Assembly: GCA_964016885.1 (NCBI GenBank)
Contig: OZ024743.1
Span: 26,412,001-26,476,000 of the forward strand
From: Eledone cirrhosa
Taxonomy: Eukaryota
DNA: 64,000 nt
Reading direction: 5' to 3'
Shown here piece after piece: positions 15,708 to 55,177 of the stretch (positions within the stretch are counted from its first letter, which is position 1; the number at the start of each line of letters is the position of its first letter). The notes under the pieces were generated by a model. That model had not been told where the DNA came from. It made no database searches and worked only from the letters and a program-made list of their open reading frames with translations. The position numbers were made by a program, and so were the translations under genes.

Positions 15708-16042
15708 GGAGGCACATGGCTTAGTGGTTAAAGCATTGGCCTTGCAATCGAAAGGTTGTGAGTTCAATTCTCAGACCGGGTGATGTGTTGTTTCCTTCAG
15801 CAAGACACTTTATTTCACATTGCTCCAGTTTACTCAGCTGTAGAAATGAGATGATAGGACTGGTGTCCATATTATTCCACTGCAAAGTGGTCGTGGAGAT
15901 GCCACGGCAAAAAAAGCACCCAGCACTCACTGTAAAAATGAGGTTGGTGTTAGGAAGGGCATCCAGCTGTAGAAATCAAGCCAGAATCAGTTCCCATCCT
16001 ACCCTTGCAAGCAGGGGAAAAGCGGACATAAAATGAAATGAT
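15708..16042 (+). mobile_element. tRNA-derived SINE family A (RTE-like tail)
   Basis: A box TGGCTTAGTGG, B box GAGTTCAATTC; tail ttaggaagggcatccagctgtagaaa resembles the RTE 3' UTR. Confidence 0.85.
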
Positions 16043-17420: not shown

Positions 17421-17800
17421 ATCATCATCATCATTTTACGTCTGCTTTTCCCTGCTTGCAAGGGTGGGACGGGAACTGATTCTGGCTTGATTTCTACAGC
17501 TGGATGCCCTTCCTAACACCAACCTCATTTACAGTGAGTGCTAGGTGCTTTTTTTCCGTGGCGCCTACACGTCCACTTTACAGTGTGGGCTGGGTGCTTT
17601 TTTGCCATGGCACCTCCACGACCACTTTGCAGTGGAATGATAGGGCCCCCAGTCCTATCATCTCATACAGCTGAGTAAACTAGAGCAATGTGAAATAAAG
17701 TGTCTTGCTCAAGGAAACACCACATCACCCGGTCTGAGAATTGAACTCACAACCTTTCGATTACAAGCCCAATGCTCTAACCACTAAGCCATGTGCCTCC
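17421..17800 (-). mobile_element. SINE family A copy
   Basis: Full head-to-(GAT)n copy of the 15708 element. Confidence 0.85.
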
Positions 17801-20861: not shown

Positions 20862-21180
20862 ATCATCATCATTTTACGTCCGCTTTTCCCTGCTTGCAAG
20901 GGTGGGACGGGAACTGATTCTGGCTTGATTTCTACAGCTGGATGCCCTTCCTAACACCAACCGCATTTACAGCGAGTGCTGGGTGCTTTTTTTTCCGTGG
21001 CGCCTACACGTCCACTTTACAGTGTGGTGCTTTTTTGCCGTGGCACCTCCACGACCACTTTGCAGTGGAATGATAGGGACCCCAGTCCTATCATCTCATT
21101 TCTACAGCTGAGTAAACTAGAGCAATGTGAAATAAAGTGTCTTGCTCAAGGAAACAACACATCACCCGGTCTGAGAATTG

Positions 21181-21181
<1 letters not shown>
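20862..21181 (-). mobile_element. SINE family A copy, head truncated at (TA)n
   Basis: Near-identical to 17421-17745. Confidence 0.8.
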
Positions 21182-21228
<47 letters not shown>

Positions 21229-21236
21229 TTATATAT

Positions 21237-24148
21237 AGATCAGGGGAACACGCCAGTCAGATAGATTATATCCTTACCAGAAGATGTGATAGAGTGTCTG
21301 TTCTAAACACTAAATCCCTCCCCCAGGAAGAATGCACCTCCCAACATAGACTCATAGTCAGCGACCTCATAGTCAAAACAAGACGTACTCGACAACAGAG
21401 GAGGACTATCCTCGGGAGAAAAATATGGAAGCTAAAGGACCCCACAGCCAGTAATAAATTTAAAAGCATATTACTTGATGCTTTCGACAGTAAGGAAGAG
21501 CAATTACAGTCGTACAATATAGAAGAACAGTGGAAATTCCTGAAAGCTAACCTGCTGAAGGCGGCAGATGAAGTCTGTGGCTGGAGCAGGCCTATAGGCA
21601 GGAGGAGAGTAATGTGGTGGTGGAACAGTAAGGTGGAGGAGTCAATTAAGGCCAAAAAGCAGGCTTGCAAAGTATGGCAGGATGGGGGAAGTAGAGAAGA
21701 CTATCAAGTGGCCAGGAGGGAAGCTAGGAGACAAGTGTATTTCGCAAGAAGGGAAGCAGAGGAAAGAAAGTTCAAGCATGTTCTACAACGCGAGGCAATG
21801 TGTCAAGGAAAACCATGATATTGTCGGGAAGAAGTGTGTCCTTAATGATGATGGTGTACTTGCCATCACTGACGCTGATAAGAAGGTAGCTTAGAAGTGT
21901 CACTACGAAAGGCTACTAAATGAGGAGAATAAATGGGAGAAAGACAGTCTCCTCCACATCGATCCAATAGAGGGACCAGCAGTGCTAGTTGAAGGGAGTA
22001 TAATAAGTCAGGCAATCAAAAATATGAAGATGGGTAAGGCAGCTGGGCCTTCGGAAATAGTTGCTGAAATGCTGAAAGCATCTGGAACGGTGGGACACAC
22101 TATGGTCACCCGGATAGTAAACCAAGTCATACAGAATGAGGCCGTTCCGAAGGACTGGAGTAGCATCATTAACTGCTACAAGGCTAAAGGAGATGCCCTA
22201 GATAGGGGTAACTATAGAGGCATTAAATTAATCGACCAGGTCATGAAGGTCACAGAAAAAGTAATAGCGCAACTAATCAGAGAACAAATTGATCTAGATG
22301 AAATGCAGTTCGGGTTTGTATCAGGTAAAAGTACCACAGACGCTCTCTTCATTGTACGACAACTACAGGAGAAGTACCTAGCTAAGAGTAAACCCCTATA
22401 CTTAGCTTTTGTTGACTTGGAGAAAGCCTTTGACAGAGTCCCCCACTGCATTATCTGGTGGGCTCTTAGAAAACTAGGTGTTGATGAATGGCTTGTGAGA
22501 GCTATACAAGCCATGTATAAAGAAACAGTCAGCAAGGTTAGAATTAACAACGAATATAGTGAAGAGTTTAGCGTAAAAGTTGGTGTTTATCAGGGCTCCG
22601 TTCTTAATCCCCTACTATTTATTATTGCCCTTCAGGCTATAACAGTAGAGTTCAAGACCGGCTGCCCATGGGAACTCCTATACGCAGATGATCTAATGCT
22701 CATAGCTGAATCAATGGCTGAACTAGAGAAGAAATTCCAAACATGGAAGCATGGCCTAGAATCAAAAGGCCTTAAAGTTAACTTGTCTAAGACTAAAGTT
22801 CTAGTTTGTAGGAAGGAAAATAGGGTACCGGTCCCATCTGGGAAATGTCCATGCTCAGTGTGTAGGAAAGGAGTAGGCAGAAACTCCATTTTATGTCCCA
22901 AATGCAAAGTATAGGTGCATAAAAGATGTAGTGGGATCACAGGTAAGCTAACTAAGAATATAGATTTTATATGTGGCCGGTGCTCTGGTGCAATAAGTAG
23001 CAACAAGTGCCCACAGAATACTAGCTCATTCCATTGCACAGATGGTTCTATAGAAATAGTGGACACCTTCCGTTACCTGGGTGACAAAATCAGCAGTGGT
23101 GGAAGGTGCTCTGAAAGTACAATAGCTAGAGTCAGAACGGGATGGAAAAAGTTCAGAGAGCTTATACCATTATTGGCCGCTAAAGGGTTCTCTCTAAAAA
23201 TGAAAGGCAGGCTGTATGATGCCTGCATACGAACAGCAATGTTACATGGCAGTGAGACCTGGGCATTGCGTGCAGAAGATATACGCAGACTGGAGAGGAA
23301 CGAAGCTTGCATGCTCCGCTGGATGTGTAATAATAATATACGTGAACGGCAAAGCATAAACGAACTAAGGGAGAAATTAGGAATAAGAGGGATCAAATGT
23401 TGTTTAATCGAGAGAAGACTACGTTGGTACGGTCACGTGATGCGCATGAAAGACGACAGCGGTATAAAAATGTTGAGGGCGATAAAAATAGACAGTAGCC
23501 ACGGAGTAGGCAGACCCAGAAAAACCTGGGACGACTTGATAAATTCCGACCTCACACTTCTCCAAGACAATGTCACTGGACCGAGATCTTTGGTGCTACA
23601 CAGTAATACAGAAGACCCGCCTTGCCTAAGTTCAAAGCGAAACCTACAGTCAGTAGGCACCTCTAACAAAAATACACCCCCGTCCCACTACCCCCACCCC
23701 ATCCACACCACCCCCTTAAATGTGAAGTTATGTTGGTACCACAACATCCAGTCCGAAACAAATGAGGTCGTGTAGGTGTCACGACAAAAAAACACACAGT
23801 CCACGCTGTAATGTGGCTGTGTAGGTAACACGGTAAAAACCTCCCAGTCCACACTGTAAATGTGGTTGGTGTTGGGAAGGGCATCCAGCCGTAGAAAACC
23901 CGCCAGACATGTTGGTGTCACGACAAAAAAACACACAGTCCATGCTGTAATGTGGCCGTGTAGGTAACACGGTAAAAACCTCCCAGTCCACATTATAAAC
24001 GTGGTTGATGTTAGGAAGGGCATCCAGCCGTAGAAAACCTGCCAGACAGTCCTATACGAGCAGGACAACCAATCTTGCCTCAAGTGGGAAAACTCCCGTC
24101 CAAACCCATGCAAGCGTGGAAGATGGACGTTAAACGATGATGATGATA
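21237..24148 (+). mobile_element. 5'-truncated RTE LINE copy
   Basis: Nearly identical translations to the 27.8-31.7 kb copy (ORFs 21982-22914 and 22915-23775). Starts right after a (TA)n tract and ends in (GAT)n. Tandem duplication of ~139 bp in the 3' UTR (about 23775-24046). Confidence 0.93.
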
Positions 24149-25960: not shown

Positions 25961-26112
25961 CATACATACATATATTTTCCTTTCACGTATAAGAAAGGAG
26001 GCAATTAAAAAAAATGATATCAAGTTAGAATTGTCAAAATCCTATGAGCAGAATGACAGTAAAAAAAAAAAAAGGCACTACAACGAAAGCAGGCGAAGGT
26101 GACGTCATTTGT

Positions 26113-26825
26113 CATCGTTTATTTCCGTATTACTACCACCACGCGTAAGTGGAGTTTTCACGCGTTTTTTTATTTTTTTTATTAAAGCATATCGATGTAA
26201 GTGGAGTTACTTAAATGAAAATATAGGTGGCCCTTAAAAGGGCCAAATTGTTAATGGAATTAACCATCGCGATCTTTCCATCGCTACCGCTACTACAGCA
26301 GATACCATCAATCTCCATGGGGACTGTATCCATGCTTTTGAATAAGGTTGGTGAAAAAAATTTGTTTTCTAAACATTTCTTCATAAAGGGTTGGTGAAAA
26401 AAATTTGATAACTATAAATTTGTTTTCTAATTTGGCCCTTTTAAGGGCCACCTATATTTTCATTTAAGTTAACTCCACTGTTGGTGAAAATGCCTTGTTT
26501 TCTACATTGATAACCATGACTATGAAAATATAAATGATTAAATCCAATTTATTTGATAACCATGACTTGTTTTCTGATTAACTTAAATTTGTTTTCTAAT
26601 TTGGTCCTTTTAAGGGCCACCTATATTTTCATTTAAGTAACTCCACTTACATCGATATGCTTTAATAAAAAAAATATATATATAAAAAAACGCGTGATAT
26701 TTTCATTTAAGTAATTCCACTTACATCTATATACTTTAATAAAAAAAATCAAAAAAAATCCACTTACGCGTGGTAGTAATACGGAAATAAACGATGTTTT
26801 GCTTTCATCGGCTACTTCGACTGAC
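26113..26825. repeat. Rearranged cluster of a repeat carrying histone-type stem-loops (one minus, two plus copies)
   Basis: GGCCCTTTTAAGGGCCACC at 26244-26226(-) and 26434-26452(+); GGTCC variant at 26603-26621(+). Shared downstream sequence tatattttcatttaag...gtagtaatacggaaataaacg. Confidence 0.85.
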
Positions 26826-27204
26826 AGCTAATAGCGTTGCACCTCTGAAAGGCAATGTCACAGGATCAAGATCTCTGGCATTATGAGGTAATACAGAAAC
26901 CCCAACTTCCCACGGGCCCAGGCCAAGGCTGAAACATACATACAGTATGCACCACTCCATCCCACCCTCCCATATATCTTTCATGAGAACAGGCCGAAAC
27001 ACTGTAAAGTGGTCGTGATGGTGACACGGTAAAAAACACCCAGTCCACACTGTAAAGTAGTCGTGGAGGAATCACAACAAAAAACACCCAGTACTCACTG
27101 TAAATGAGCTTGGCATTAGGAAGGGCATCCAGCTGTAGAAACCAAGCCAAAATCAGTTCTTTATGAGCAAGACATGGTCACCTGACCTAACATTGCCAAC
27201 AATA

Positions 27205-27802: not shown

Positions 27803-30800
27803 TCATCATCATAGTTTAACGTCCATCTTCCACGCTTGCATGGGTTTGGACGGGAGTTTTCCCACTTGAGGAAAGAGTGGTTGTCTTGCTCGCATAGGAC
27901 TGTCTGGCGGGTTTTCTACGACTGGATGCCCTTCCTAACACCAACCACATTTACAGTGTGGACTGGGAGGTTTTTACCGTGTTACCTACACGGCCACATT
28001 ACAGCGTGGACTGTGTGTTTTTTTGTCGTGACACCTACACGACCTCATTTGTTTCAGACTGGATGTTGTGGTACCAACATAACTTTACATTGAAAGGGGT
28101 GGGGGTAGTGGGACGGGGGTGTATTTTTGTTAGAAGTGCCTACTGACTGTAGGTTTCACTTTGTACTTAGGTAAGGCGGGTCTTCTGTATTACTGTGTAG
28201 CACCAAAGATCTCGGTCCAGTGACATTGTCTTGGAGAGGTGTAAGTGTGTGAGGTCGGAATTTATCAGCTCGTCCCAGGTTTTTCTGGGTCTGCCTACTC
28301 CGTGGCTACCGTCTATTTTTATTGCCCTGCACTTTTTTATACAGCTGTCTTTCATGCGCATCACGTGACCATACCAACGTAGTCTTCTCTCGAGTAAACA
28401 ACATCTGATCCCTCTTATTTTTAATTTTTCCCTTAGTTCGTTTATGCTTTGCCGTTCACGTATATTACTATTACACATCCAGCGGAGCTTGCAAGCTTCG
28501 TTCCTCTCCAGTCTGCTTATATCCTCTGCACACAATGCCCAGGTCTCACTGCCATGTAACATTGCTGTTCGTATGCAGGCATCATACAGCCTGCCTTTCA
28601 TTTTTAGAGAGAACCCTTTAGCGGCTAATAGTGGTATAAGCTCTCTGAATTTTTCCATCCAGTTCTGACTCTCGCTACTGTACTTTCAGAGCACCCTCCA
28701 CCACTGCTGATTTTGTCACCCAAGTAACGGAAGGTGTCCACTATTTCTATAGAACCATCTGTGCAATGGAATGAGCTAGTATTCTGTGGGCACTTGCTGC
28801 TACTTATTGCACCAGAGCACCGGCCACATATAAAATCTATATTCTTAGTTAGCTTACCTGTGATCCCACTACATCTTTTATGCACCTATACTTTGCATTT
28901 GGGACATAAAATGGAGTTTCTACCTACTCCTTTCCTACACACTGAGCATGGCCATTTCCCGGATGGGACCGGTGCCCTATTTTCCTTCCTACAAACTAGA
29001 ACTTTAGTCATAGACAGGTTAATTTTAAGGCCTTTTGATTCTAGGCCATGCTTCCATGTTTGGAATTTCTTCTCTAGTTCAGCCATTGATTCAGCTATGA
29101 GCATTAGATCATCTGCGTATAGGAGTTCCCATGGGCAGCCGGTCTTGAACTCTACTGTTATAGCCTGAAGGGCAATAATAAATAGTAGGTGATTAAGAAC
29201 GGAGCCCTGATGAACACCAACTTTTACGCTAAACTCTTCACTATATTCGTTGTTAATTCTAACCTTGCTGACTGTTTCTTTATATATGGCTTGTATAGCT
29301 CTCACAAGCCATTCATCAACACCTAGTTTTCTAAAAGCCCACCAGATAATGGAACGGGGCACTCTGTCGAAGGCTTTCTCCAAGTCGACAAAAGCTAAGT
29401 ATAGGGGTTTACTTTTAGCTAGGTACTTCTCCTGTAGTTGTCGTACAATGAAAAGACCGTCTCTGGTACTTTTACCTGACACAAACCCGAACTGCATTTC
29501 ATCTAGATCAATTTGTTCTCTGATTAGTTGCGCTATTACTTTTTCTGTGACCTTCATGACCTGGTCGATTAATTTAATGCCTCTATTGTTACCTCTATCT
29601 AGGGCATCTCCTTTAGCCTTGTAGCAGTTAATGATGATGCTGCTACGCCAATCCTTCGGAACAACTCCATTCTGTATGACTTGGCTTACTATCCGGGTGA
29701 CCATAGTATGTCCCACCGTTCCAGAAGCTTTCAGCATTTCAGCAACTATTTCCGAAGGTCCAGCCGCCTTACCCGTCTTCATATCTTTGATTGCCTTACT
29801 TATTATACTACCTTTGACTAACACTGCTGGTCCCTCTATTGGATCGATGTGGGGGAGACTGTCTTTCTCCCATTTATTCTCCTCATTTAGTAGCCTTTCG
29901 TAGTGACACTTCCAAGCTACCTTCTTATCATCGTCAGTGATGGAAAGTACACCATCATCATTAAGGACACACTTCTCCCCAACAATATCACGGTTTTCCT
30001 TGACACATTGCCTAGCAATCATGAACACCTCACGTTTTTGGTCCTCGCGTTGTAGAACATGCTTGAACTTTCTTTCCTCTGCTTCCCTTCTTGCGAAGTA
30101 CATTTGTCTCCTAGCTTCCCTCCTGGCCACTTGATAGTCTTCTCTACTTCCCCCATCCCACCATACTTTCCAAGCCTTCTTTTTGGCCTTAATTGACTCC
30201 TCCACCTTACTGTTCCACCACCACATTACTCTCCTCCTGCCTATAGGCCTGCTCCAGCCACAGACTTCATCTGCCGCCTTCAGCAGGTTTGCTTTCAGGA
30301 ATTCCCACTGTTCCTCTATATTGTACGATTCTAATTGCTCTTCCTTACTGTCGAAAGCATCAAGTAATATGCTTTTAAATTTATTACTGGCTGTGGGGTC
30401 CTTTAGCTTCCATATTTTTCTCCTGAGGATAGTCCTCTTCTGTTGTCGAGTACGTCTCGTCCTGACTATGAGGTCGCTAATTATGAGTCTATGTTGGGAG
30501 GTGCATTCTTCATGGGGGAGGGATTTAGTGTTTACAACAGACACTCTGTCACGTCTTCTGGTAAGGATATAATCTACCTGGCTGGTATGTTCCCCTGATC
30601 TGTAGGTGATCAAGTGATTGTCTCGTTTTTTGAAGTTAGTGTTACAGATATATTTCTTTATTAGCCACAGGGGCACAAAAGAAGGGGACAAATACAAAGG
30701 GGGAAGTTTACATACAATAAAAACGTGTAAAATGTTATCACAGATGGAATTTAAAAGTTAGTCGATTTTCCCCAATAGAGGGAGACAGTTTATATGGGTA

Positions 30801-31700
30801 TGTTACAGATAGTTAGGTTATTTGCGTCACAGAATTCCAGGATTCTGGAGCCTTCCTCATTTCTAGTACCAAACCCATAGCCTCCATGGATTCCGTCATA
30901 GCCGTCACAATGTTGTCCAACGTGACCATTTAGGTCGCCAGCAATAATTATATTGTCACTGTCGGTTATTTGGGAGGTAGTGAGCATCAGTGTCTCATAG
31001 AATATGTCTTTTATAGCGCCAGGAAGTCCGGATTGGGGTGCGTACGCAGATATTACTGTCACAGTAGTTCTATTTAGAACAAGTCTTATTTTAATTATTC
31101 TGTCATTCACTCTATTTACGTCTATTATCTTAACCACCCATTTGTCTGCTAACATGATTCCTACCCCACCCAGCCCATTGTCATTTCCCACCCAGAAAAG
31201 CTTATAGCATCGTTTTTTACCCACAATGAATCTAGCAGACCCGCCCCTCCACCTGGTCTCTTGAATACAGCAAACATCAACCTCCTTACGTTCAAGCATT
31301 TCTACAACCTCGTTAGAGCGGCCTTTTAAGGTGCCTACATTCATGATACCAACTCTGAAGTTTTGGATTGCGTTTGGTGGGTGGGGCGCGGGGAGGGGTG
31401 AGGGGGTGGGGTTGGGGTTATGTTGGCCATCCGTGGCCGAAACAAAGAGGAGGAGTCCTTGCCCTTTCGTCCGGCAGCATGAGGTGAATTTGACGTTATC
31501 TTTGGCATTGTCTCCGAGTGTCCAGATTCTTCAGACTCTCCAGAAATTCCTTAGTCCATCCATCATATCGAAAAACAACCAGGAGAAGTGATAGCATAGG
31601 CCGCTGACTTATGATTGGTCCAAATAATAGTGGTGGAGAGTGGGGGCGGGCGGGAGGGGTATGGGGTAGTTAGCGAGGAGAAGGTTTTAAATAAAGCAAT
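27803..31700 (-). mobile_element. Near full-length RTE-clade LINE (APE endonuclease, RT, PHD-like finger), disrupted
   Basis: ORF 31344-30790 has APE motifs (NVGTL, CCIQETRW, SAYAPQ, AGDLNGHVG). ORF 30697-28886 has QVDYIL, SQHRL, QFGFVSGKST, FVDLEKAFDRV, GVHQGSVL, LLYADDL. C-terminus has RRLRWYGHV and GRPRKTW. (GAT)n tail at ~27803. Disrupted by a 150-bp insertion, an amber stop and a frameshift near 28650. 5' end approximate. Confidence 0.93.
30651..30800 (-). mobile_element. Short 5'-truncated LINE 3' end nested in the RTE ORF
   Basis: Flanked by the 11-bp duplication TGTTACAGATA (30640-30650 and 30801-30811). Minus-strand end is ...gtggctAATAAAgaaata. Confidence 0.8.
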
Positions 31701-36700: not shown

Positions 36701-37402
36701 TATAGTGTGATTCTCTTTAAATTAAAATCATTAAATTGTAATGCCTATCTTCTATATCTTAAAGAGTGACCTTAAATGTGATTGCAAATGACTTTTTTCT
36801 CTGGGTTAATGTTAGATTTAGGGTAAGTTTTACTGTTAATGGTAAGTTTATTGTTAGTGACTGTGTTACTGTTAGCATTACTGTCACTGTTAGTGTTACT
36901 GTAACTGTTACTCTTACAGTTACTGTTTGCGTTACTGTCTGCATAAGCGTCTATGTAAGCTTTTGTGTTAGTGTCTATGTAGACTGGTGTTAGCATCTGC
37001 GTTAGTGTTTGCGTAAGTGTCAGCATCTATATCAGCATTTGCGTCAGCGTCTGCACTGGTGATAGTGATTGTGTCAGCATTTCCCTTAGCGTCTGAGTCA
37101 ACATTAGTGTTAGTATTAGTGTTTGTTTCAGTGCCTACGTCTACGTCAGCTTCTGAGCCAGCATTATCATTAGCGTCCACGTCAGCACTTGTGTCAGTGT
37201 CAGTATTTCCCTCAGTGTCAGCGTTTGCATCAGCATGCACGTCAGCATTTGCATTAGTGTTTGAGTCAGTGTTAGCATCAGCGTTTGCATTTGTGTAGGG
37301 GTTAGCATTTGCGTCAGCATCTGCATCAGCATTCACATTAGCATTAGCGTTTGCGACAGCGTTTCCTTTAACGTCTTTGTCAGCATTTCCGTTAGCGTCT
37401 GT

Positions 37403-37960
37403 GTCAGCGTGTACGTTAGCTTCTACGTCAGTGTTTACGTTAGCATCTATGTCAGTGTTTACGTTAGCTTCTACGTCAGTGTTTCCGTTAGCATCTATGT
37501 CAGTGTTTCCGTTAGCTTCTATGTCAGTGTTTCCGTTAGCTTCTACGTCAGTGTTTCCGTTAGCATCTATGTCAGTGTTTCCGTTAGCATCTATGTCAGT
37601 GTTTCCGTTAGCTTCTACGTCAGTGTTTCCGTTAGCATCTATGTCAGTGTTTCCGTTAGCTTCTACGTCAGTGTTTACGTTAGCATCTATGTCAGTGTTT
37701 CCGTTAGCATCTATGTCAGTGTTTCCGTTAGCATCTATGTCAGTGTTTCCGTTAGCTTCTACGTCAGTGTTTCCGTTAGCATCTATGTCAGTGTTTCCGT
37801 TAGCTTCTACGTCAGTGTTTACGTTAGCATCTATGTCAGTGTTTCCGTTAGCTTCTACATCAGTGTTTACGTTAGCATCTATGTCAGTGTTTCCGTTAGC
37901 TTCTACGTCAGTGTTTACGTTAGCATCTATGTCAGCGTTTCCGTTAGCTTCTACGACAGC
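37403..37960. repeat. Homogeneous 24-bp minisatellite (~23 units)
   Basis: Unit gtcagtgttt(c/a)cgttagc(a/t)tcta(t/c). Confidence 0.95.
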
Positions 37961-39437
37961 GTTTCCGACCGCGTCTGTGGCAGCGTCAGTATTTACATCT
38001 ACATCAGCGTCAGCGTTTCAGTTAACGTCAGTGTTTACGTTAGCGTCTGTGCCAGCGTTTACGTTAGCTTCTACGTCAGCGTTTCCGTAACGTCTACGTC
38101 AGCGTTTCCGTTAGCGTTGGCGTTTCCATTAACCTTTCCTGTGGCGTCCGCATCATTGCAGCGTCTGCATATCTCATGTAAGCGTTAACTTCAGCATTTG
38201 CGTCAGCGTTAACCCTAGCGTCCGCATCAGCATTTGCGTTAGCGTCAGAATACACGTCAGCGCCGGCAAAACTGCCTCAACATTTGCGTCAGCGTTAGCT
38301 TTGGCTTTGGCTTTAGCAATCCGCATCAGCAATTGCGTTTTGGAGATCAGCTTCAGCGGTAAGGGTAAACGCTAATTTCTACGCCTGCTTCTACGTTAAC
38401 AACTACGTCAGCGTTTTGTTAGCTTCTACGTCAGCGTTTACGTTAGCTTCTACATCAGCATCTACGTTAGCTTCTACGTCAGCGTCTACGTTAACATCTA
38501 CGTCATCGTTTACGTTAGCTTCTACGTCAGCATCTACATTAGCTTCTACATCAGCGCTTACATTAGTGTCTGTGTCAGCGTTTGTGTTAGCTTCTACGTC
38601 AGCGTCTGTGTCAGCGTCTGTATTTACATCTACATCAGCGTCAGCGTTTACATTTGCGTCTGTGTCAGCGTTTACGTTAGCTTCTACGTCATCGTTTACA
38701 TTAGCGTCTGCGTCATCGTTTACGTTAGTGTCTGTGTCAACGTGTGTTAGCATCTGTGTCAGCATTTATGTTAGCGTCTGCGTCAGTGTTTATATTAGCA
38801 TCTGCGTCAGTGTTTACGTTAGCATGTGTTAACGTGTGTTTGCGTTTGTGTCAGCGTCTGCATCAGCATTTTCATTAGTGTTTGCATCAGTGTTTCCTTT
38901 CGCTTCTACGTCAATGTTTACGTCTGCGTTAAGGTTCACATTAGCATCGCTGTCATCGTTTGCGTCAGCATTTGCGTTTGCTTTAACATCTGCATCAACA
39001 TTTGCGTCTGTGTTTGCATTAGTGTCTGCATTTGCTTTAGTGTTTGCATCAGCGTGAGAATTTGTGTCAGTGTCCACGTCAGCGTTAGAGTGTGTAGCAT
39101 TTACATCAGCGTGTACGTCAGAGTCTTTGTCAGCATTCGCCTTTGCACCTGCATCAGTATTCACTTTAGTGTTTGTGTCAGCGTAAGTGATTGTGTCAAC
39201 ATTTGCGCTAGCGTTTGTGCCAGCATAGCCATCTTCGTCAGTGTCAGCGTTGGCATTAGCGTTAGTGTTTCCATTAGTGTTCGTGTTAGTGTTTGATTTT
39301 GTATTAGTGTTAGCATTTTTGTTAGTGTTAGTGTTTGTGTTAGTTTTCAGGTTAATGTTGACTTAGTTTTCTGGTTAGTGTTAGTTTTCAGGTTAGGGCT
39401 CGTGTTACTTTTAGTGTTAGTGCTCAGGTTAGTGGTT

Positions 39438-39971: not shown

Positions 39972-42950
39972 GGTTTATGGTAGTGTTAGTGTTCAGGTTA
40001 ATGTTCGTATTAATGTCAGTTTTAGTGTTAGTGTTAGTGTTCAGGTTAGTGTTAGTGTTTACGGTAGTGTTAGTTTTAGTGTTATTTTTTCCATTAGTGT
40101 TAGTGTTTTATTTTGTGTTAATGTTTGTGTTAGTGTTTCCATTAGTGTTAGTGCTAGTCTTTGTTTTTCTGTTAATGTTAGTGTTTGTTTTAGTGTTGGG
40201 GTTAATGTTAGCTTAGTTTTCTGGTTAGTATCAGTTTTCGTGTTAGTTTTAGCGTTAGTGTTCAGGTTAGTGTTAGTTTTTATGGTAGTGTTAGTGTTAC
40301 TGTTAGTGCTCAGATCAGTGTTAGTGTTTGTGTTACTGTTTATGGTAGTGTTAGTTTTAGTGCTAGTGTTTAGGTTAATGTTAGTTTTAGTGTAAGTGTT
40401 CAAGTTAGTGTTAGTGTTCAAGTTATGTTTGTGTTAATGTTAGTTTTAGTGTTAAGGTTAGTGTTAGAGATTGTGTTAGTGTTTGTTTTTGTGTTAGTAT
40501 CTCTGTTAGCATTAGTGATTGATGTTTCCATTAGTGTTAGTGATTGTGTTAGCGTTAGTCTTTGTTTTTGTGTTAATGTTAGCATTAGTATTTCTGTTAG
40601 TGTTAGCATGAGTGTTTGTGTTAGTGTTCAGGTTAATGTTAGCTTAGTTTTCAGGTTAGTGTTAGTGTTCAAGTTAATGTTAGTTTTAGTGTTAGAGATT
40701 GTGTTAGTGTTTGTTTTTGTGTCAATATTTGTGTTAGTATCTCTGTTAGTGTTAGTTTTAGTGTAAGTGTTCAGGTTAGTGTTAGTTTTAGTGCTAAGGT
40801 TAGTGTTTGTATTTGTTTTTGTGTTAATATTTGTGTTAGTATCTCTGTTAGTGTTAGTTTTAGTGTAAGTGTTCAGGTTAGTGTTAGTGTTAAGGTTAGT
40901 GTTAGTATTTGTTTTTGTGTTAATATTTGTGATAGTATCTCTGTTAGCATTAGTGTTTGATGTTTCCATTAGTGTTAGTGATTGTGTTAGCGTTAGTCTT
41001 TGTCTTTGTGTTAAGGTTAGCATTAATGTTAGCATTAATATTTCTGTTAGTGTTAGCATTAGTGTTTATGTTAGTGTTCAGGTTAATATTAGCTTAGTTT
41101 TCAGGTTAGTGTTAGTGTTCAAGTTAATGTTAGTTTTAGTGTTAGAGATTAGTGTTAGAGATTGTGTTTGTGTTTGTTTTTGTGTTAATATTTGTGTTAG
41201 TATCTCTGTTAGTGTTAGTTTTAGTGTAAGTGTTCAGGTTAGTGTTAGTGTTAGTTTTAGTGTTAAGGTTAGTGTTAGTATTTGTTTTTGTGTTAATATT
41301 TGTGTTAGTATCTCTGTTAGCATTAGTGTTTGATGTTTCCATTAGTGTTAGTGATTGTGTTAGCGTTAGTCTTTGTTTTTGTGTTAAGGTTAGCATTGGT
41401 ATTTCTGTTAGTGTTAACATTAGTGTTTATGTTAGTGTTCAGGTTAATGTTAGCTTAGTTTTCAGGTTAGAGTTAGTGTTCAAGTTAATGTTAGTTTTAG
41501 TGTTGAGGTTAGTGTTAGAGATTGTGTTAGTGTTTGTTTTTGTGTTAATATTTGTGTTAGTATCTCTGTTAGCGTTAGTGTTTGTTTTAATGTTGAAGTT
41601 AATGTTAGCTTAGTTTTCTGGTTAGTATCAGTTTTCAGATTAGTGTTTGTGTTAGTGTTACTTTTAGTGTTAGTGCTCAGGTCAGTGTTAGTGTTTATGG
41701 TAGTGTTAGTTTTAGTCCTAGTGTTCAGGCTAATGTTTGTGCTAATGTTAGTTTTAGTGTAAGTATTCGGGTTAGTGTTAGTGTTTGTATTGGTGTTTAC
41801 GGTAGTGTTAGTTTTAGTGCTGGTGTTCAGGTTAGTGTTAGTGTCAGTTTTAGTGTTAGTGTTCAGGTTAGTGTTTGTGTTAGTTTTCAGATTTTGTGTT
41901 TGTGTTAGTTTTCATGTTAGCGCTAAGTTCACTGTTAGAGCCTGTGTGAGTGCAAGTGTTAGGGTAAGTTATTTTTAAAGTTCGGTTTTAGCTTAAAGTT
42001 AGGTTTTCTACTTTCCAGGAAAAAAGTTGATCCTCTCTAACTTGAGTGGTGTGATATAGTGTGGTAAAGTATAGTGTTTCATAGTCTTGTGTAGTGTTGT
42101 CTATTGTTGTATAGTGTAGTATGGTATATTGTTTCATAGAATGGTCTGGTGTGAGGTCGTACAGTGTTTCGTAGTGTGGTGTTGGATAATGTGGTATGGT
42201 ATTATGTTTATCAGTGTGGTGTGGTATGGTATAGGTTGATGTAGTGTGGCTTAGTTTGATTATAATAATACAAATAATAATAACAATAATAATAGTAATA
42301 ATAATTGTTCTTGTTCATTTTCTTTGTCTTCTTCTGTGCCTTTGACTTCTTCTGTGCCTTTGACTTCTTCTGTGCCTTTGACTGCTTCTGTGCCTTTGAC
42401 TTCTTCTGTGCCTTTGACTGCTTCTGTGCCTTTGACTTCTCCTCTGCCATCTAATCTAAATACCAAAAACAAAGAATGTAAAACATATATGTTGCCTATC
42501 TCTCAGACTTTACAAAGTGCTGAGGAGATAAAGTTAATTTAAAGAGCAGTGTGCTCATGCATTGTGATCCTATAATGTAGCTTATAAGCTATTTCATAAC
42601 TAAAAAACAATGTCAAACATCAACAAAAGTATATACAAATATCTTTGAATGTTTAAGTTAAACCTAAATAGATCGTATCTACAGGTCATTAGGTTAAGAC
42701 TGAACTAAGATCATATCTATAAATCATTAGGTTTAGACTGAACTGAGATCATACTTTCTTCTTCTTTTCATCATCTTCGTTTCCCGTGTCTTCTTTGTCT
42801 TTGTTGTCATTTTCATTTTAGTCGTCTGCTTAGTCGTCTTTTTCTTCTTTTCCATCTAAACATAAAAAAAAATTGTAAACAAATATATAGCTGATCTCTC
42901 AGACTTTCACGAAACACCGAGGAGATACAGTTAATATAACGAGTGGGGAG

Positions 42951-50699: not shown

Positions 50700-53053
50700 G
50701 TGAACGGTCATTAGTGTTACTGCTGAGGAACCTTTAGGGGACTCTGATCATGCTATGATCATTGCCAATGTATCCCTCATGGGCAGTAACAAGAACCACA
50801 ACCATCTCCAAACTGCTCACTTTGACTGGAATAAAGCAGACTGGAACTGTTACTGCACATCGTTGCAACGGCCAAACTGGCTTGAGTTTTACAACTCTGG
50901 AGATGTCAACACTGTACTCCAGAACAAACTGAGCTCAATATGAACAGCATGTGCAGCATCGGTGCCACGTAAGCGGAAAAAACATCCCAAAAGTGCAATT
51001 TGGGAGACTGCAGCAGTCCGTCTTGCCAGAAAAGAACGGCGCAATGCTGAACGTGAGTACAAACTTCACAAATCAGACATTAATAGGAAGAGGCGAAATA
51101 GATCGTCCAACCACCTCAAACAGGTGACAAAAAAAGGTAGTGCTTCAATTTGAGCAGCGCATAGCAACCAGCCCTGACAGTAAGGTGTTCTGGAAGTATG
51201 TTCACTCAAAGCAGAGGCCTCACTCTCCAGTTGGTCCTCTTCGCAATCCCCACACAAGCCAGGTTACTGACGGTCCCAAGGAATGCGCAGAGCTCATTGC
51301 TGAATGCTATGCAGGCATTTTCACTATTGAAGACCAGAATGTACCATCTCCACCACCTATGACACCGGACTCTATTACAACCATGGAATTTACACCTGCA
51401 ATGCTGCGACGTCACCTAAAAAATAAACGCAACCATGCCTCTCCTGGTCTTGATGGTGTTACGTACCTGCTTCTTAAACGTGGTGGGTACTTACTTCTGC
51501 ACCAGTTATCACGCTTCTTCCAATTCTGTCCAAACAACAGTGCTACTCCAGAACAGTGGAAAACTGCCAGTGTCATTCCTCTGTTCAAAAAGGGTGACCG
51601 CACATCACCTGTGAACTATCGTCCAGTCAGTCTTACTAGTTGCATCGCCAAACTGATGGAATCCTGTGTCAGAGAAACACTTTGGAACTTCTGGAGCTCT
51701 CACAGTCTTATCCGGCCCTCGCAATTTGGATTTATCCCCAACTCCAGCTGCTGTGATCAACTTATAGAGTTTCTTGAGGACATCACCCGGATCACTGATG
51801 GCGGCTCATGGGTGGATGTTGTTTACCTTGACTTTGCGAAAGCCTTCAATTCTGTGCCACACAAAAGGCTTATGGGAAAACTCTCTGCAATGGGTGTGAA
51901 GGGTGATCTTTTTAACTGGTTGAAGTCCTTCATTCTCAGTCGAAGAGAGGTAGTCACGGTTCTGGGACAGCATTCCTCACCATATTAGATGTCATCTGCT
52001 GTACCACAGGATCTGTTCTTGGCCCCCTTTTGTTTGTGGCATATATTAATGACATAGATGCCAACTTAAAGAATGCCACAGTACTAAAGTACGCAGACGA
52101 CATCAAGCTGTACCTTGAGATAAAAAGGACAGATCCTGAACACTATAGATCTTGCTTGCAGTCTGGCCTGGACACAATGCAACAATGGATCTCAGACTGG
52201 CAACTCAAGCTAGCTGTGGACAAGTGCACCACCATGCATTTTGGGAGTAAAAACCCAGCGTCCACATACTCCCTCCACAGCACTAATATCAAGAAGTCTT
52301 CTTGTGAACGTGACCTGGGCATTACGGTCAGTAGCGATTTGCGTTGGACGAGGCACGTCTCTAAAATTGTCAAGAGGGCCGAGGGTGTCTTAGCATCACT
52401 CAGCAAGACCTTTGTCAGCCGCTCTCCAGATATCTATTTAAGGCTGTACATGGCTATGGTGCGACCACAATTAGAATTTGCATCACCAGTCTGGAACCCT
52501 TATCTTTCTCAGAACATTGACCGCCTGGAAACTGTTCAGAGACGTGCAACCAAGCGAATACCCTCCATCAGGCATCTACCATACTCTGAGCGCCTTGCTT
52601 CCCTGGGCATGGATACATTGAAGCTCCGACGCCTGGCAACTGACTTGGTAAACACCCACAAAATTGTTAACCATGTTGCCAACAACAACCCTGAGTACCT
52701 TTTTGATTTCCATGTGTCTAACACACGTGGACATGCCCACAAAGTCAGAAAACAGCACAGTTCCCATGACTTTCGGAAACATTTTTTCACGCTCAGAGTT
52801 GCTGAAGCATGGAACAAACTACCTGCATCAGTTGTTAGCTGTCGAGACACTGCATCCTTTAAGGCCTCCATGCTTCCCGAGATCCGCCAACACTACAGCT
52901 AATGTTCCCTCTCCATACACATACCCACACGTATACCATGACTCATACACTGTTCACTTCCCTGACATTTGTGTATTATTCTATGTACTATACATACACC
53001 TTTGACTAGTTGTAGTGCACCTGAGCACTTTACACAATAATTTCATTATTATT
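50700..53053 (+). mobile_element. CR1/L2-type LINE, 5'-truncated ORF2 with stops and frameshifts
   Basis: EPLGDSDH, KVFWKYV, ASPGLDG, NYRPVSLTS, QFGF, YLDFAKAFNSVPH, KYADDIKLY, ERDLGI, VRPQLEFASPVW, TRGHAHK, FFTLRVAEAWNKLP; 3' UTR ends in (ATT)n. Confidence 0.92.
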
Positions 53054-53228
53054 ACATAATGTAGGGATTTTCTTTTCCTTTTCTATCATTTCTTATTTAT
53101 GTATTTATATATTTATTTATCTACTCTCGTGATTGATATTCCGACAAATGTTATTTTGGTTTTTTATTATGTCAGGTATAGCATCCCAAAATTTCTCCCT
53201 TCCCCGAATATATATATATATATATACA

Positions 53229-53310
53229 AACACAGTGTCCCAAAAAATGTATACACACTTCAACAGCAAAGTAATCAAAGTTTGTATATATTTTGGAGGG
53301 GACACCGTGT
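53229..53310. mobile_element. Tiny Tc1/mariner-like MITE
   Basis: Imperfect TIRs acacagtgtcccaaaaaatgtatacacactt / aagtttgtatatattttggaggggacaccgtgt, in a TA tract. Confidence 0.55.
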
Positions 53311-53374
53311 GTATATATATATTTGTGTGTGTGTGTATGTGTAACTAGTAAAACTGTAAAAACGCAGCGGTATA

Positions 53375-53563
53375 TTCTAATTTGGCCCTTTTAAGGGCCA
53401 CCTATATTTTCATTTAAGTAACTCCACTTACATCTATATGCTTTAATAAAAAAAAATAAAAAAACGCGTGAAAAATTTTTTTTTTTCATTTAAGTAACTC
53501 CACTTACGCGTGGTAGTAATACGGAAATAAACGGTTTTGCTTTCATCGGCTGCTTCGACTGAC
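53375..53563 (+). repeat. Dispersed copy of the histone-stem-loop repeat
   Basis: Matches about 26594-26825, with the stem-loop at 53384-53402. Confidence 0.85.
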
Positions 53564-53966: not shown

Positions 53967-54010
53967 CTGCTCTCTCACTTCAGCTTTGATTGCCATCTCA
54001 GTTGTTGACA

Positions 54011-55177
54011 ATGTATGTGAAATTAATAACTGTCTTAATCTGTGTAGTTGTTACCGTCTCTGGATTTGCTCTAAATCCATTTGATGGCAAATGCGTTGAA
54101 AATGCTTATCCACCAAAAGCTTCTACCGCTGTTCCCAGCCTGACTATCAACTTAGATCTACCTGCTCATGATCGATGGAAGGAAGTGGCTCTAAAATATA
54201 AAGATTCTATGAAGAACCTCATCGGACTTATCAAAACCCTGGTAAAAAGCATACCTTATGGAGGCGACCTGATCATCACTCTTATTGATAAGTATCTTGA
54301 TAAAATTATTCCTACACTTCCTGCTCCTTATGCTGATGAACTGATTGGCATGGCAGACTACTCAGGAGTCAATCGTGGCGAGATACTTTTATATAATATC
54401 TTCTACGAAGTTTTTACAGTATGTACGTCTATTGTTGCTGAAGACAAAAATGGTGAGTTGTTTCACGCTAGAAATCTTGACTTCGGTCTGTTAATGGGGT
54501 GGGACATAAAAAACAACAGCTGGGCCGTCACAGAGGCTCTTCGACCCATGATTATGAACTTGGATTTCCAAAAGAACAACAAAACTGTTTTTAAATCTGT
54601 AAACTTCGCTGGTTATATCGGGGTCCTGACCGGTGTCAAACCTGGTGTAATTACATTAACTTTAAATGAAAGATTTCAACTTCAAGGTGGTTATATTGGA
54701 ATACTTAAATGGTTGATGGGCGACAATTCACTTAAATGGTCAGGTTTTTTAACCAGGGACACTCTTATGACTGCAACCTCCTATAAAATGGCTGAATATA
54801 TGCTTTCTACGCCGAAACTGCTAGCACCCGTATATTTCATCTTGGGTGGAACAAAGCCAAAAGAAGGATGTGTGATCACAAGATCTCTAGAAAAGTCTGA
54901 TATATGGGATATGTCTGATGCGCGTAGCTGGTACATATTGGAAACAAATTACGATCATTGGACAGATCCACTGGTTATCGATGATCGCAGAACACCGGCC
55001 AAAATCTGTATGAATAAAATCACTAAAAATAATGTCACCATGGCTAGAATTTACGACGTTCTCAGTACAAAACCAGTCCTCAACAAACTTACAACATATA
55101 CATCCTTAATGCAGGCAAAAACTGGACATTTAGAAACCCATATCCAAAATTGTCCAGATCCTTGCTGGCCTTGGTAA
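54011..55177 (+). CDS. ASAH1: Acid ceramidase (N-acylsphingosine amidohydrolase, Ntn-hydrolase), single coding exon, 388 aa
   Basis: Uninterrupted ORF from ATG 54011. Hydrophobic signal peptide MYVKLITVLICVVVTVSG; INLDLPAHDRW; autocleavage/catalytic Cys motif EVFTVCTSIVAED (Cys codon 54422-54424); HARNLDFG; ETNYDHW; DDRRTPA; C-terminal CPDPCWPW. These match animal acid ceramidases. Confidence 0.95.
   Translation: MYVKLITVLICVVVTVSGFALNPFDGKCVENAYPPKASTAVPSLTINLDLPAHDRWKEVALKYKDSMKNLIGLIKTLVKSIPYGGDLIITLIDKYLDKIIPTLPAPYADELIGMADYSGVNRGEILLYNIFYEVFTVCTSIVAEDKNGELFHARNLDFGLLMGWDIKNNSWAVTEALRPMIMNLDFQKNNKTVFKSVNFAGYIGVLTGVKPGVITLTLNERFQLQGGYIGILKWLMGDNSLKWSGFLTRDTLMTATSYKMAEYMLSTPKLLAPVYFILGGTKPKEGCVITRSLEKSDIWDMSDARSWYILETNYDHWTDPLVIDDRRTPAKICMNKITKNNVTMARIYDVLSTKPVLNKLTTYTSLMQAKTGHLETHIQNCPDPCWPW

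Follow-up and report, generated by a model that had tools for sequence, protein, structure and literature searches.

Histone H4 mRNA 3′-end stem-loops in Eledone cirrhosa are probably passengers in the damaged ends of a likely giant Merlin transposon

The Merlin superfamily, related to IS1016/IS1595, is described in part of PMC8101967 as having terminal inverted repeats (TIRs) of 24-462 bp with a terminal 5'-GG, an 8- or 9-bp target duplication and a DDE_Tnp_IS1595 transposase. The Eledone cirrhosa elements analyzed here have GG TIRs, the 8-bp duplication and a single DDE_Tnp_IS1595 transposase of ~300 aa in common with that superfamily, and differ from it in having copies of 23-28 kb, cargo, two like ends and a captured histone 3' end. 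Histone mRNAs are stated in part of PMC10388802 to be the only metazoan mRNAs that carry the histone hairpin instead of poly(A). With the metazoan histone mRNA 3' end (RF00032; SLBP, U7 snRNP) the Merlin hairpin shares the stem, the loop, the ACC and the host-type downstream motif of a host H4 gene; unlike it, the Merlin hairpin has no histone ORF, has an AATTT flank, lies 140 nt from the stop codon in sister copies, has inverted partners and is preceded by an upstream AATAAA.

Pack-MULEs are capture-prone DNA transposons. Other composite or capture-prone systems are the Drosophila Ising TE, which lies between foldback elements (part of PMC6431247), and MITE birth, with filler-DNA capture by template switching in abortive gap repair (part of PMC3814204). 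The present elements share with these three systems two ends mobilising host DNA, filler capture with 1-2 nt microhomology and inverted subterminal re-copying, and differ in their Merlin chemistry, mostly repeat cargo and an RNA-processing signal behind the transposase. Dada transposons at multicopy small-RNA genes (part of PMC3706591) are likewise DNA transposons at multicopy gene loci, whereas the Merlins lack a fixed target sequence, insert at distances from histone genes that range from tens of bases to kilobases, and have most of their copies elsewhere. Term searches did not find 'histone' in the available text of PMC8101967 or 'Merlin' in that of the giant-transposon review PMC6431247. 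No description of a Merlin bearing a histone hairpin was found in a search of mainly open-access literature.

The window is the whole stretch of Eledone cirrhosa DNA that was analyzed (64,000 nucleotides). The original prediction was that it holds four orphan histone stem-loops carried by a dispersed repeat. All four motifs of the GGCCCT-TTTA-AGGGCC-ACC type were located as predicted, against 0.09 expected by chance, and their common downstream sequence was borne out by sequence comparison. The Rfam Histone3 profile (RF00032, cut-off 34 bits) recovered three of the four at or above cut-off (37 bits at 26429, 34 bits at 26249 on the minus strand and 34 bits at 53379); the GGTCC copy at 26603 was not listed. 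A search by tblastn with five host histones found no histone coding sequence in the window ±10 kb, in agreement with the absence of one upstream of the hairpins. The left cluster is an inverted mosaic, as had been described, with 79-nt arms that are 99% complementary, and the data fit the proposed template-switch reading of it. The features are as follows (TIR, terminal inverted repeat).

26074-53563, no strand: likely giant non-autonomous Merlin, 27.5 kb, both ends damaged; six sister giants together align to 74% of it at ≥85% identity
26074-26085, plus: outer TIR remnant, first 12 nt followed by a deletion; full TIR in sister copies
26087-26170, minus: Merlin subterminal segment; matches the terminal segment of a copy with transposase at 87.5%
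26183-26244, minus: captured piece of an H4 3' end, its stem-loop at 26229-26244; aligns to the H4 gene at locus L141 with 96.8% identity in 63 columns; Rfam 34 bits
26246-26312, plus: transposase gene remnant, codons 9-29; 90% amino acid identity
26312-26531, minus: corresponds to sequence 5' of the transposase in sister copies; contains the second hairpin, inverted; 87.6% over 226 columns
26434-26479, plus: second H4 piece, its stem-loop at 26434-26449; 97.8% identical to H4 across 46 nt; Rfam 37 bits
26522-26664, plus: re-copied transposase 3' region with the third H4 piece (26603-26664, GGTCC variant); 96.5% to the element, 95.2% to H4
26697-26738, plus: further re-copy of the H4-derived tail, without stem; from sequence comparison
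26754-26839, plus: terminal segment and truncated inner TIR; from sequence comparison
26837-47311, no strand: cargo common to sister giants, consisting of low-complexity arrays and SINE and LINE fragments, with no histone gene
53050-53563, plus: right end of the giant, TIR without its last ~21 nt; 90.6% over 530 columns to the right end of giant F
53384-53445, plus: fourth H4 piece, its stem-loop at 53384-53399; 95.2% identical to H4 across 63 columns; Rfam 34 bits
53555-53688, no strand: 134-bp palindrome starting in the right TIR and replacing its tip; 66-nt arms, 98% complementary

The segment 53376-53565 was searched against the 3.0-Gb Eledone cirrhosa genome, giving 964 candidates, of which 40 were scored, and at least 41 matches. 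The flanks of these matches defined an element end with a GG-starting TIR, ~28 bp long in sister copies and shortened at both outer ends of the window copy. Small copies are flanked by an 8-bp duplication, exact at L020 and 7/8 at L030. Full copies of the hairpin family encode a transposase of about 302 aa with domain PF12762 (DDE_Tnp_IS1595; E 5e-20; 68.8-72.5 bits, cut-off 27), the closest named proteins being those of Octopus bimaculoides and O. sinensis (73-85%). With its GG-starting TIR, 8-bp duplication and PF12762 domain, the carrier family is a Merlin. Helitron2/Helentron ends carry a hairpin a few bases from the tip, without a GG TIR or an 8-bp duplication; this identity was rejected for the present hairpin, which lies ~200 bp inside a GG-TIR element with an 8-bp duplication. 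The exact 28-mer comprising the hairpin and its flanks occurs 489 times in the genome, compared with 0 for the reversed control, and the exact TIR 23-mer 396 times. Among the 30 best transposase loci, the hairpin follows the transposase stop on the sense strand within 700 nt in 28 and at 84-190 nt in 23, the commonest position being +140, so that it does lie directly 3' of a transposon ORF in sister copies; the original prediction had missed this transposase just upstream. An inverted second hairpin is present ~1.1 kb upstream in most of these loci.

Both clusters, 27 kb apart, are likely the ends of one giant Merlin, and the original prediction likely missed that its far copy is the other end of the same element. 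For the window this claim rests on the match to sister giants, without a target duplication, the right TIR being cut. Sister-giant cover of 26074-53563 is in largely the same order over 26837-47311 and 53050-53563. Facing TIR pairs 20-30 kb apart are frequent among the first 100 of the 396 TIR matches listed. Six such pairs were fetched; they span 23.6-28.1 kb, and all six have an exact 8-bp duplication, one of which lies in a TA run and is uninformative. The transposase is kept at the left end, pointing outward, in three of the six giants, and the same cargo follows the transposase in 14/30 transposase copies. No histone gene was found in the cargo of seven elements. The cut left TIR, the reduction of the transposase to codons 9-29 and the palindrome replacing the right tip together make the window copy likely immobile.

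Within the cargo, arrays at 36968-38017 and 42322-42448 (both minus strand) read as acidic 8-residue and lysine-rich 6-residue repeats and are common to the sister giants. Broken LINE copies with reverse-transcriptase-like frames were recognized by eye at 20955-23775, 28167-31530 and 51128-52902, and the LINE at 27.8-31.9 kb has the opposite orientation and a shifted position compared with the sister giants. Divergent mirror-image pairs of transposase genes were seen at L048/L049, L051/L052 and L079, in the hairpin family and in another Merlin family.

The Merlin piece was aligned with the 3' end of the H4 gene at L141; the alignment begins with the initial G of the stem and has 95% identity in 64 columns. 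The window pieces match this one host 3' end over 46-63 bp at 95-98% identity and lie inside a Merlin transposon, and the proposed capture of a histone end by a mobile element was thereby upheld. L141 lies on another chromosome than the window. Diverged forms of this flank are present in other H4 paralogs; it is therefore native to H4, and the transfer went from H4 to the transposon. Histone mRNA is cleaved ~5 nt after the stem; the match extends ~40 nt beyond the expected cleavage site, which suggests DNA rather than mature mRNA as the template. Older Merlin copies (83-90% nucleotide identity) were compared at the insertion site, utilizing the five of 20 loci with a followable 3' end: the stem-loop is absent from 5/5 and the site is unbroken in 4/5. 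The junctions of the captured piece show 1-2 nt of microhomology. The 5' flank native to H4 is retained in sister elements that have other TIR variants, one of which also has a longer tail; the first capture was therefore longer, and the hairpin lineage lost the flank. Capture of an H4 3' end by a Merlin lineage is thus nearly certain.

Related small elements (L366, L371, L372, L328-L351) carry two divergent H4 hairpins 69 bp apart with the native flank kept, and among 100 of 175 matches listed these elements are concentrated on one chromosome, C18. At L367 and L368 (C28:124.69-124.95 Mb) a large tandem array repeats an H4-flanked hairpin at intervals of ~30-45 kb, and no histone ORF was seen alongside.

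Merlins were then counted around histone genes and around tubulin and actin controls, which differ from histone genes in lacking expression matching. The counts are small and clustered, and a Merlin had already been seen in three of the histone stretches when they were fetched. TIRs lie within 1.5 kb of 4/30 histone loci, 0/30 tubulin loci and 0/30 actin loci. Any Merlin piece is present in 13 of 28 histone-containing 10-kb stretches vs 1 of 20 for tubulin/actin (Fisher p 0.003), and the hairpin family alone in 9/28 (p 0.03); by cluster, a Merlin is present in 8/16 histone clusters vs 1/18 controls (p 0.006). In 390 kb covering histone clusters and their surroundings the exact 28-mer is found 7 times vs 0.06 expected, the matches being clustered, and a hairpin-less Merlin family gives 5 TIR matches near histone genes vs 0.12 expected. 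L417 was left out of these counts as it had been chosen for its known element; L144 was dropped, its five-residue motif match being unconfirmed by tblastn, and L142 was added by the same test. From this enrichment we infer that Merlins insert preferentially near histone genes. Since the hairpin-less Merlins are enriched too, the preference is likely older than the capture and would explain it. A histone-carrying composite in L130, with an H2A/H2B pair between two Merlin pieces, was considered and rejected, as the pieces have no shared target duplication. An H2A gene at L137 has two tandem stem-loop ends 183 bp apart (5852 and 6035, minus strand).

Taken together, the hairpins are best explained, with good probability, as H4 3'-end pieces captured by a Merlin through template switching and now passengers in the broken ends of one 27.5-kb element. 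Following preferential insertion near histone genes, an aborted gap repair would have copied H4 DNA behind the transposase stop, and repeated re-copying of the element ends would have carried the piece into both arms. With the inner TIR gone, the transposase may then have come to use a second end ~25 kb away, after which the window copy would have lost its transposase and both TIR tips. In the window, the left-end piece at 26183-26244 (minus strand) occupies the place that in sister copies is taken by the hairpin after the transposase stop. Two other accounts were weighed against this one. The palindrome might act on DNA, as a fold-back point or a subterminal binding site for end re-copying, with its histone origin incidental; the hairpin is indeed inverted near both ends and repeatedly re-copied, and many junctions lie in or beside it. 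Three of the six giants, however, have no match to the H4 piece at their right end, and older relatives have complete ends without the hairpin, which is therefore not needed for mobility, leaving a DNA-level role quite improbable. The near identity to the H4 flank would also suit debris of a true histone cluster, or a chance look-alike. That reading was refuted by the H4 comparison, the copy count and the histone tblastn, with no histone coding sequence in the window ±10 kb or in the six giants, 489 exact transposon-flanked copies vs 0 in the reversed control and a donor on another chromosome, and its probability is close to nil.

A stronger rival to passenger status is that the captured end functions. 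SLBP and U7 would cleave the transposase pre-mRNA after the hairpin, and the transposase would be produced mainly during S phase, or else kept in oocytes. Cut-and-paste in S phase, followed by repair from the sister chromatid, gives a gain in copy number; the family would profit from this, and the window copies would be dead by-products of the lineage. As an account of the hairpins this is doubtful, and for the transposase copies of the family a functional end is, judged from sequence, a minority possibility. Position, strand, folding and downstream motif are as in host genes. In a start-to-hairpin transcript the predicted pair probabilities of the hairpin are 0.85-1.0. Host histone genes have an N-W-W-G-T motif starting 15-16 nt after the stem in 38/51, and the Merlin hairpin has a W-W-A-G-T-type motif at +16, the host spacing; this speaks to the earlier caveat that no clear HDE is present, and the motif is a candidate HDE. 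A profile search for U7 with RF00066 gave no match and has no weight either way. The hairpin-bearing lineage also dominates the best transposase matches, a point against passenger status.

The 5' flank argues against function. An A is present at -2 or -3 before the stem in 51/51 host histone genes, whereas TTT directly precedes the stem (flank AATTT) in 27/28 transposase copies, as had been cautioned; this count is unbiased, unlike flank counts from a set of 89 distinct hairpin copies that were chosen by that flank. Full SLBP affinity is reported in part of PMC10388802 to need two 5' adenines. An AATAAA lies at +73/74, ahead of the hairpin, in 18/30 transposase copies, and the distance from stop to hairpin is 140 nt vs mostly 19-40 nt in host histone genes. 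In transcripts that include the upstream inverted copy the hairpin is predicted to be lost, and arm-to-arm pairing is predicted to consume two of the three left-end window hairpins. The G-U pair kept by the GGTCC variant is no sign of selection; covariation was rejected, because the 89 copies comprise 63 exact, 18 with a broken pair, 8 keeping all pairs and 0 compensatory, a decay count that covers inserted copies only and has selection on active parents outside its reach. Contigs of two sequencing runs, of either RNA or DNA, cover the element and show no ends. The hairpins of the window itself are very likely passengers, and S-phase, poly(A)-independent processing of the window's own copies is unlikely because they have no transposase, have lost the 5' flank and have inverted copies predicted to pair mutually.

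Distant Merlins bear on function in both directions. Outside loci were taken from the best 80 of 500 metagenome relatives plus one viral relative (81 in all); in 64 of them the sequence continued for at least 100 nt past the stop. Under a strict pattern these 64 yielded one hairpin (L282, +59 after the stop), and a relaxed pattern, adopted only once the strict one had been applied, added two (L247, +87; L303, +21). The hairpins (L247:1241, L282:2436 and L303:1041) are all sense and have A-rich flanks, two have C as the first loop base, and a C-G to U-A change is present at pair 4 among them. They amount to three in 17.7 kb, whereas no hairpin in 375 kb of control positions has all six pairs intact. 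Against function, their scores of 28.7-32.2 bits fall short of the Rfam cut-off (34), two come from the post-hoc pattern, and there is no hairpin behind the stop in 61/64 distant Merlins or at 20/20 loci of other Merlin families in the Eledone cirrhosa genome (0 Rfam Histone3 matches). Viral contigs gave one weak relative (24%), without a hairpin. On a quick tree, which includes database proteins without hairpin scoring, the three distant hairpins and the hairpin family fall on four separate branches with four changes.

Hairpins were also found in three Helitron families of the Eledone cirrhosa genome (L358; L359/L360; L361; Pfam PIF1/Helitron_like_N; helicase identity 51-68%). At 200-285 nt past the helicase stop they have in common an island of ~30 nt with a histone-type hairpin and an A-rich flank; apart from one 56-nt match, they share little else there. 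This shared island counts in favour of a functional end, and the three families would be better candidates for function than the hairpin Merlin lineage; the Helitron hairpin may act at the DNA level. Further loci of the Helitron-family hairpin are L362, L363 and L373-L375. Across nine aligned hairpin ends the adenine at -3 is missing only in the hairpin Merlin lineage. The recurrence of hairpins with A-rich flanks in distant Merlins and Helitrons looks like selection. A broader proposal is that DNA transposons have made repeated use of the histone 3'-end pathway. The Merlin lineage, several distant Merlins and the three Helitron families would each have put an SLBP/U7 signal after the transposase gene, giving a non-polyadenylated mRNA timed to S phase or the oocyte, and Merlins would favour histone loci and acquire such signals there. 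This proposal is tentative and rated below even on these comparisons.

If the transposase mRNA did end in the hairpin, it would be an exception among metazoan mRNAs and would give a direct mechanism timing cut-and-paste to replication. One genome holds relatives from before the capture, a sister lineage with the native flank and a lineage without it, which makes the family a natural experiment. Even as a passenger, the hairpin documents a 25-kb Merlin and a Merlin preference for histone loci, and it carries a warning for annotation in that at least 489 Histone3-like matches in the Eledone cirrhosa genome mark no histone gene.

Beyond the element, an intronless acid ceramidase/NAAA-type ORF of 395 aa (53990-55177, plus strand; Pfam CBAH and NAAA-beta), possibly a retrogene, starts ~430 bp past the right end of the giant. 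Weak Rfam tRNA matches at 15717-15774 and 17734-17791 are the heads of a frequent tRNA-derived SINE.
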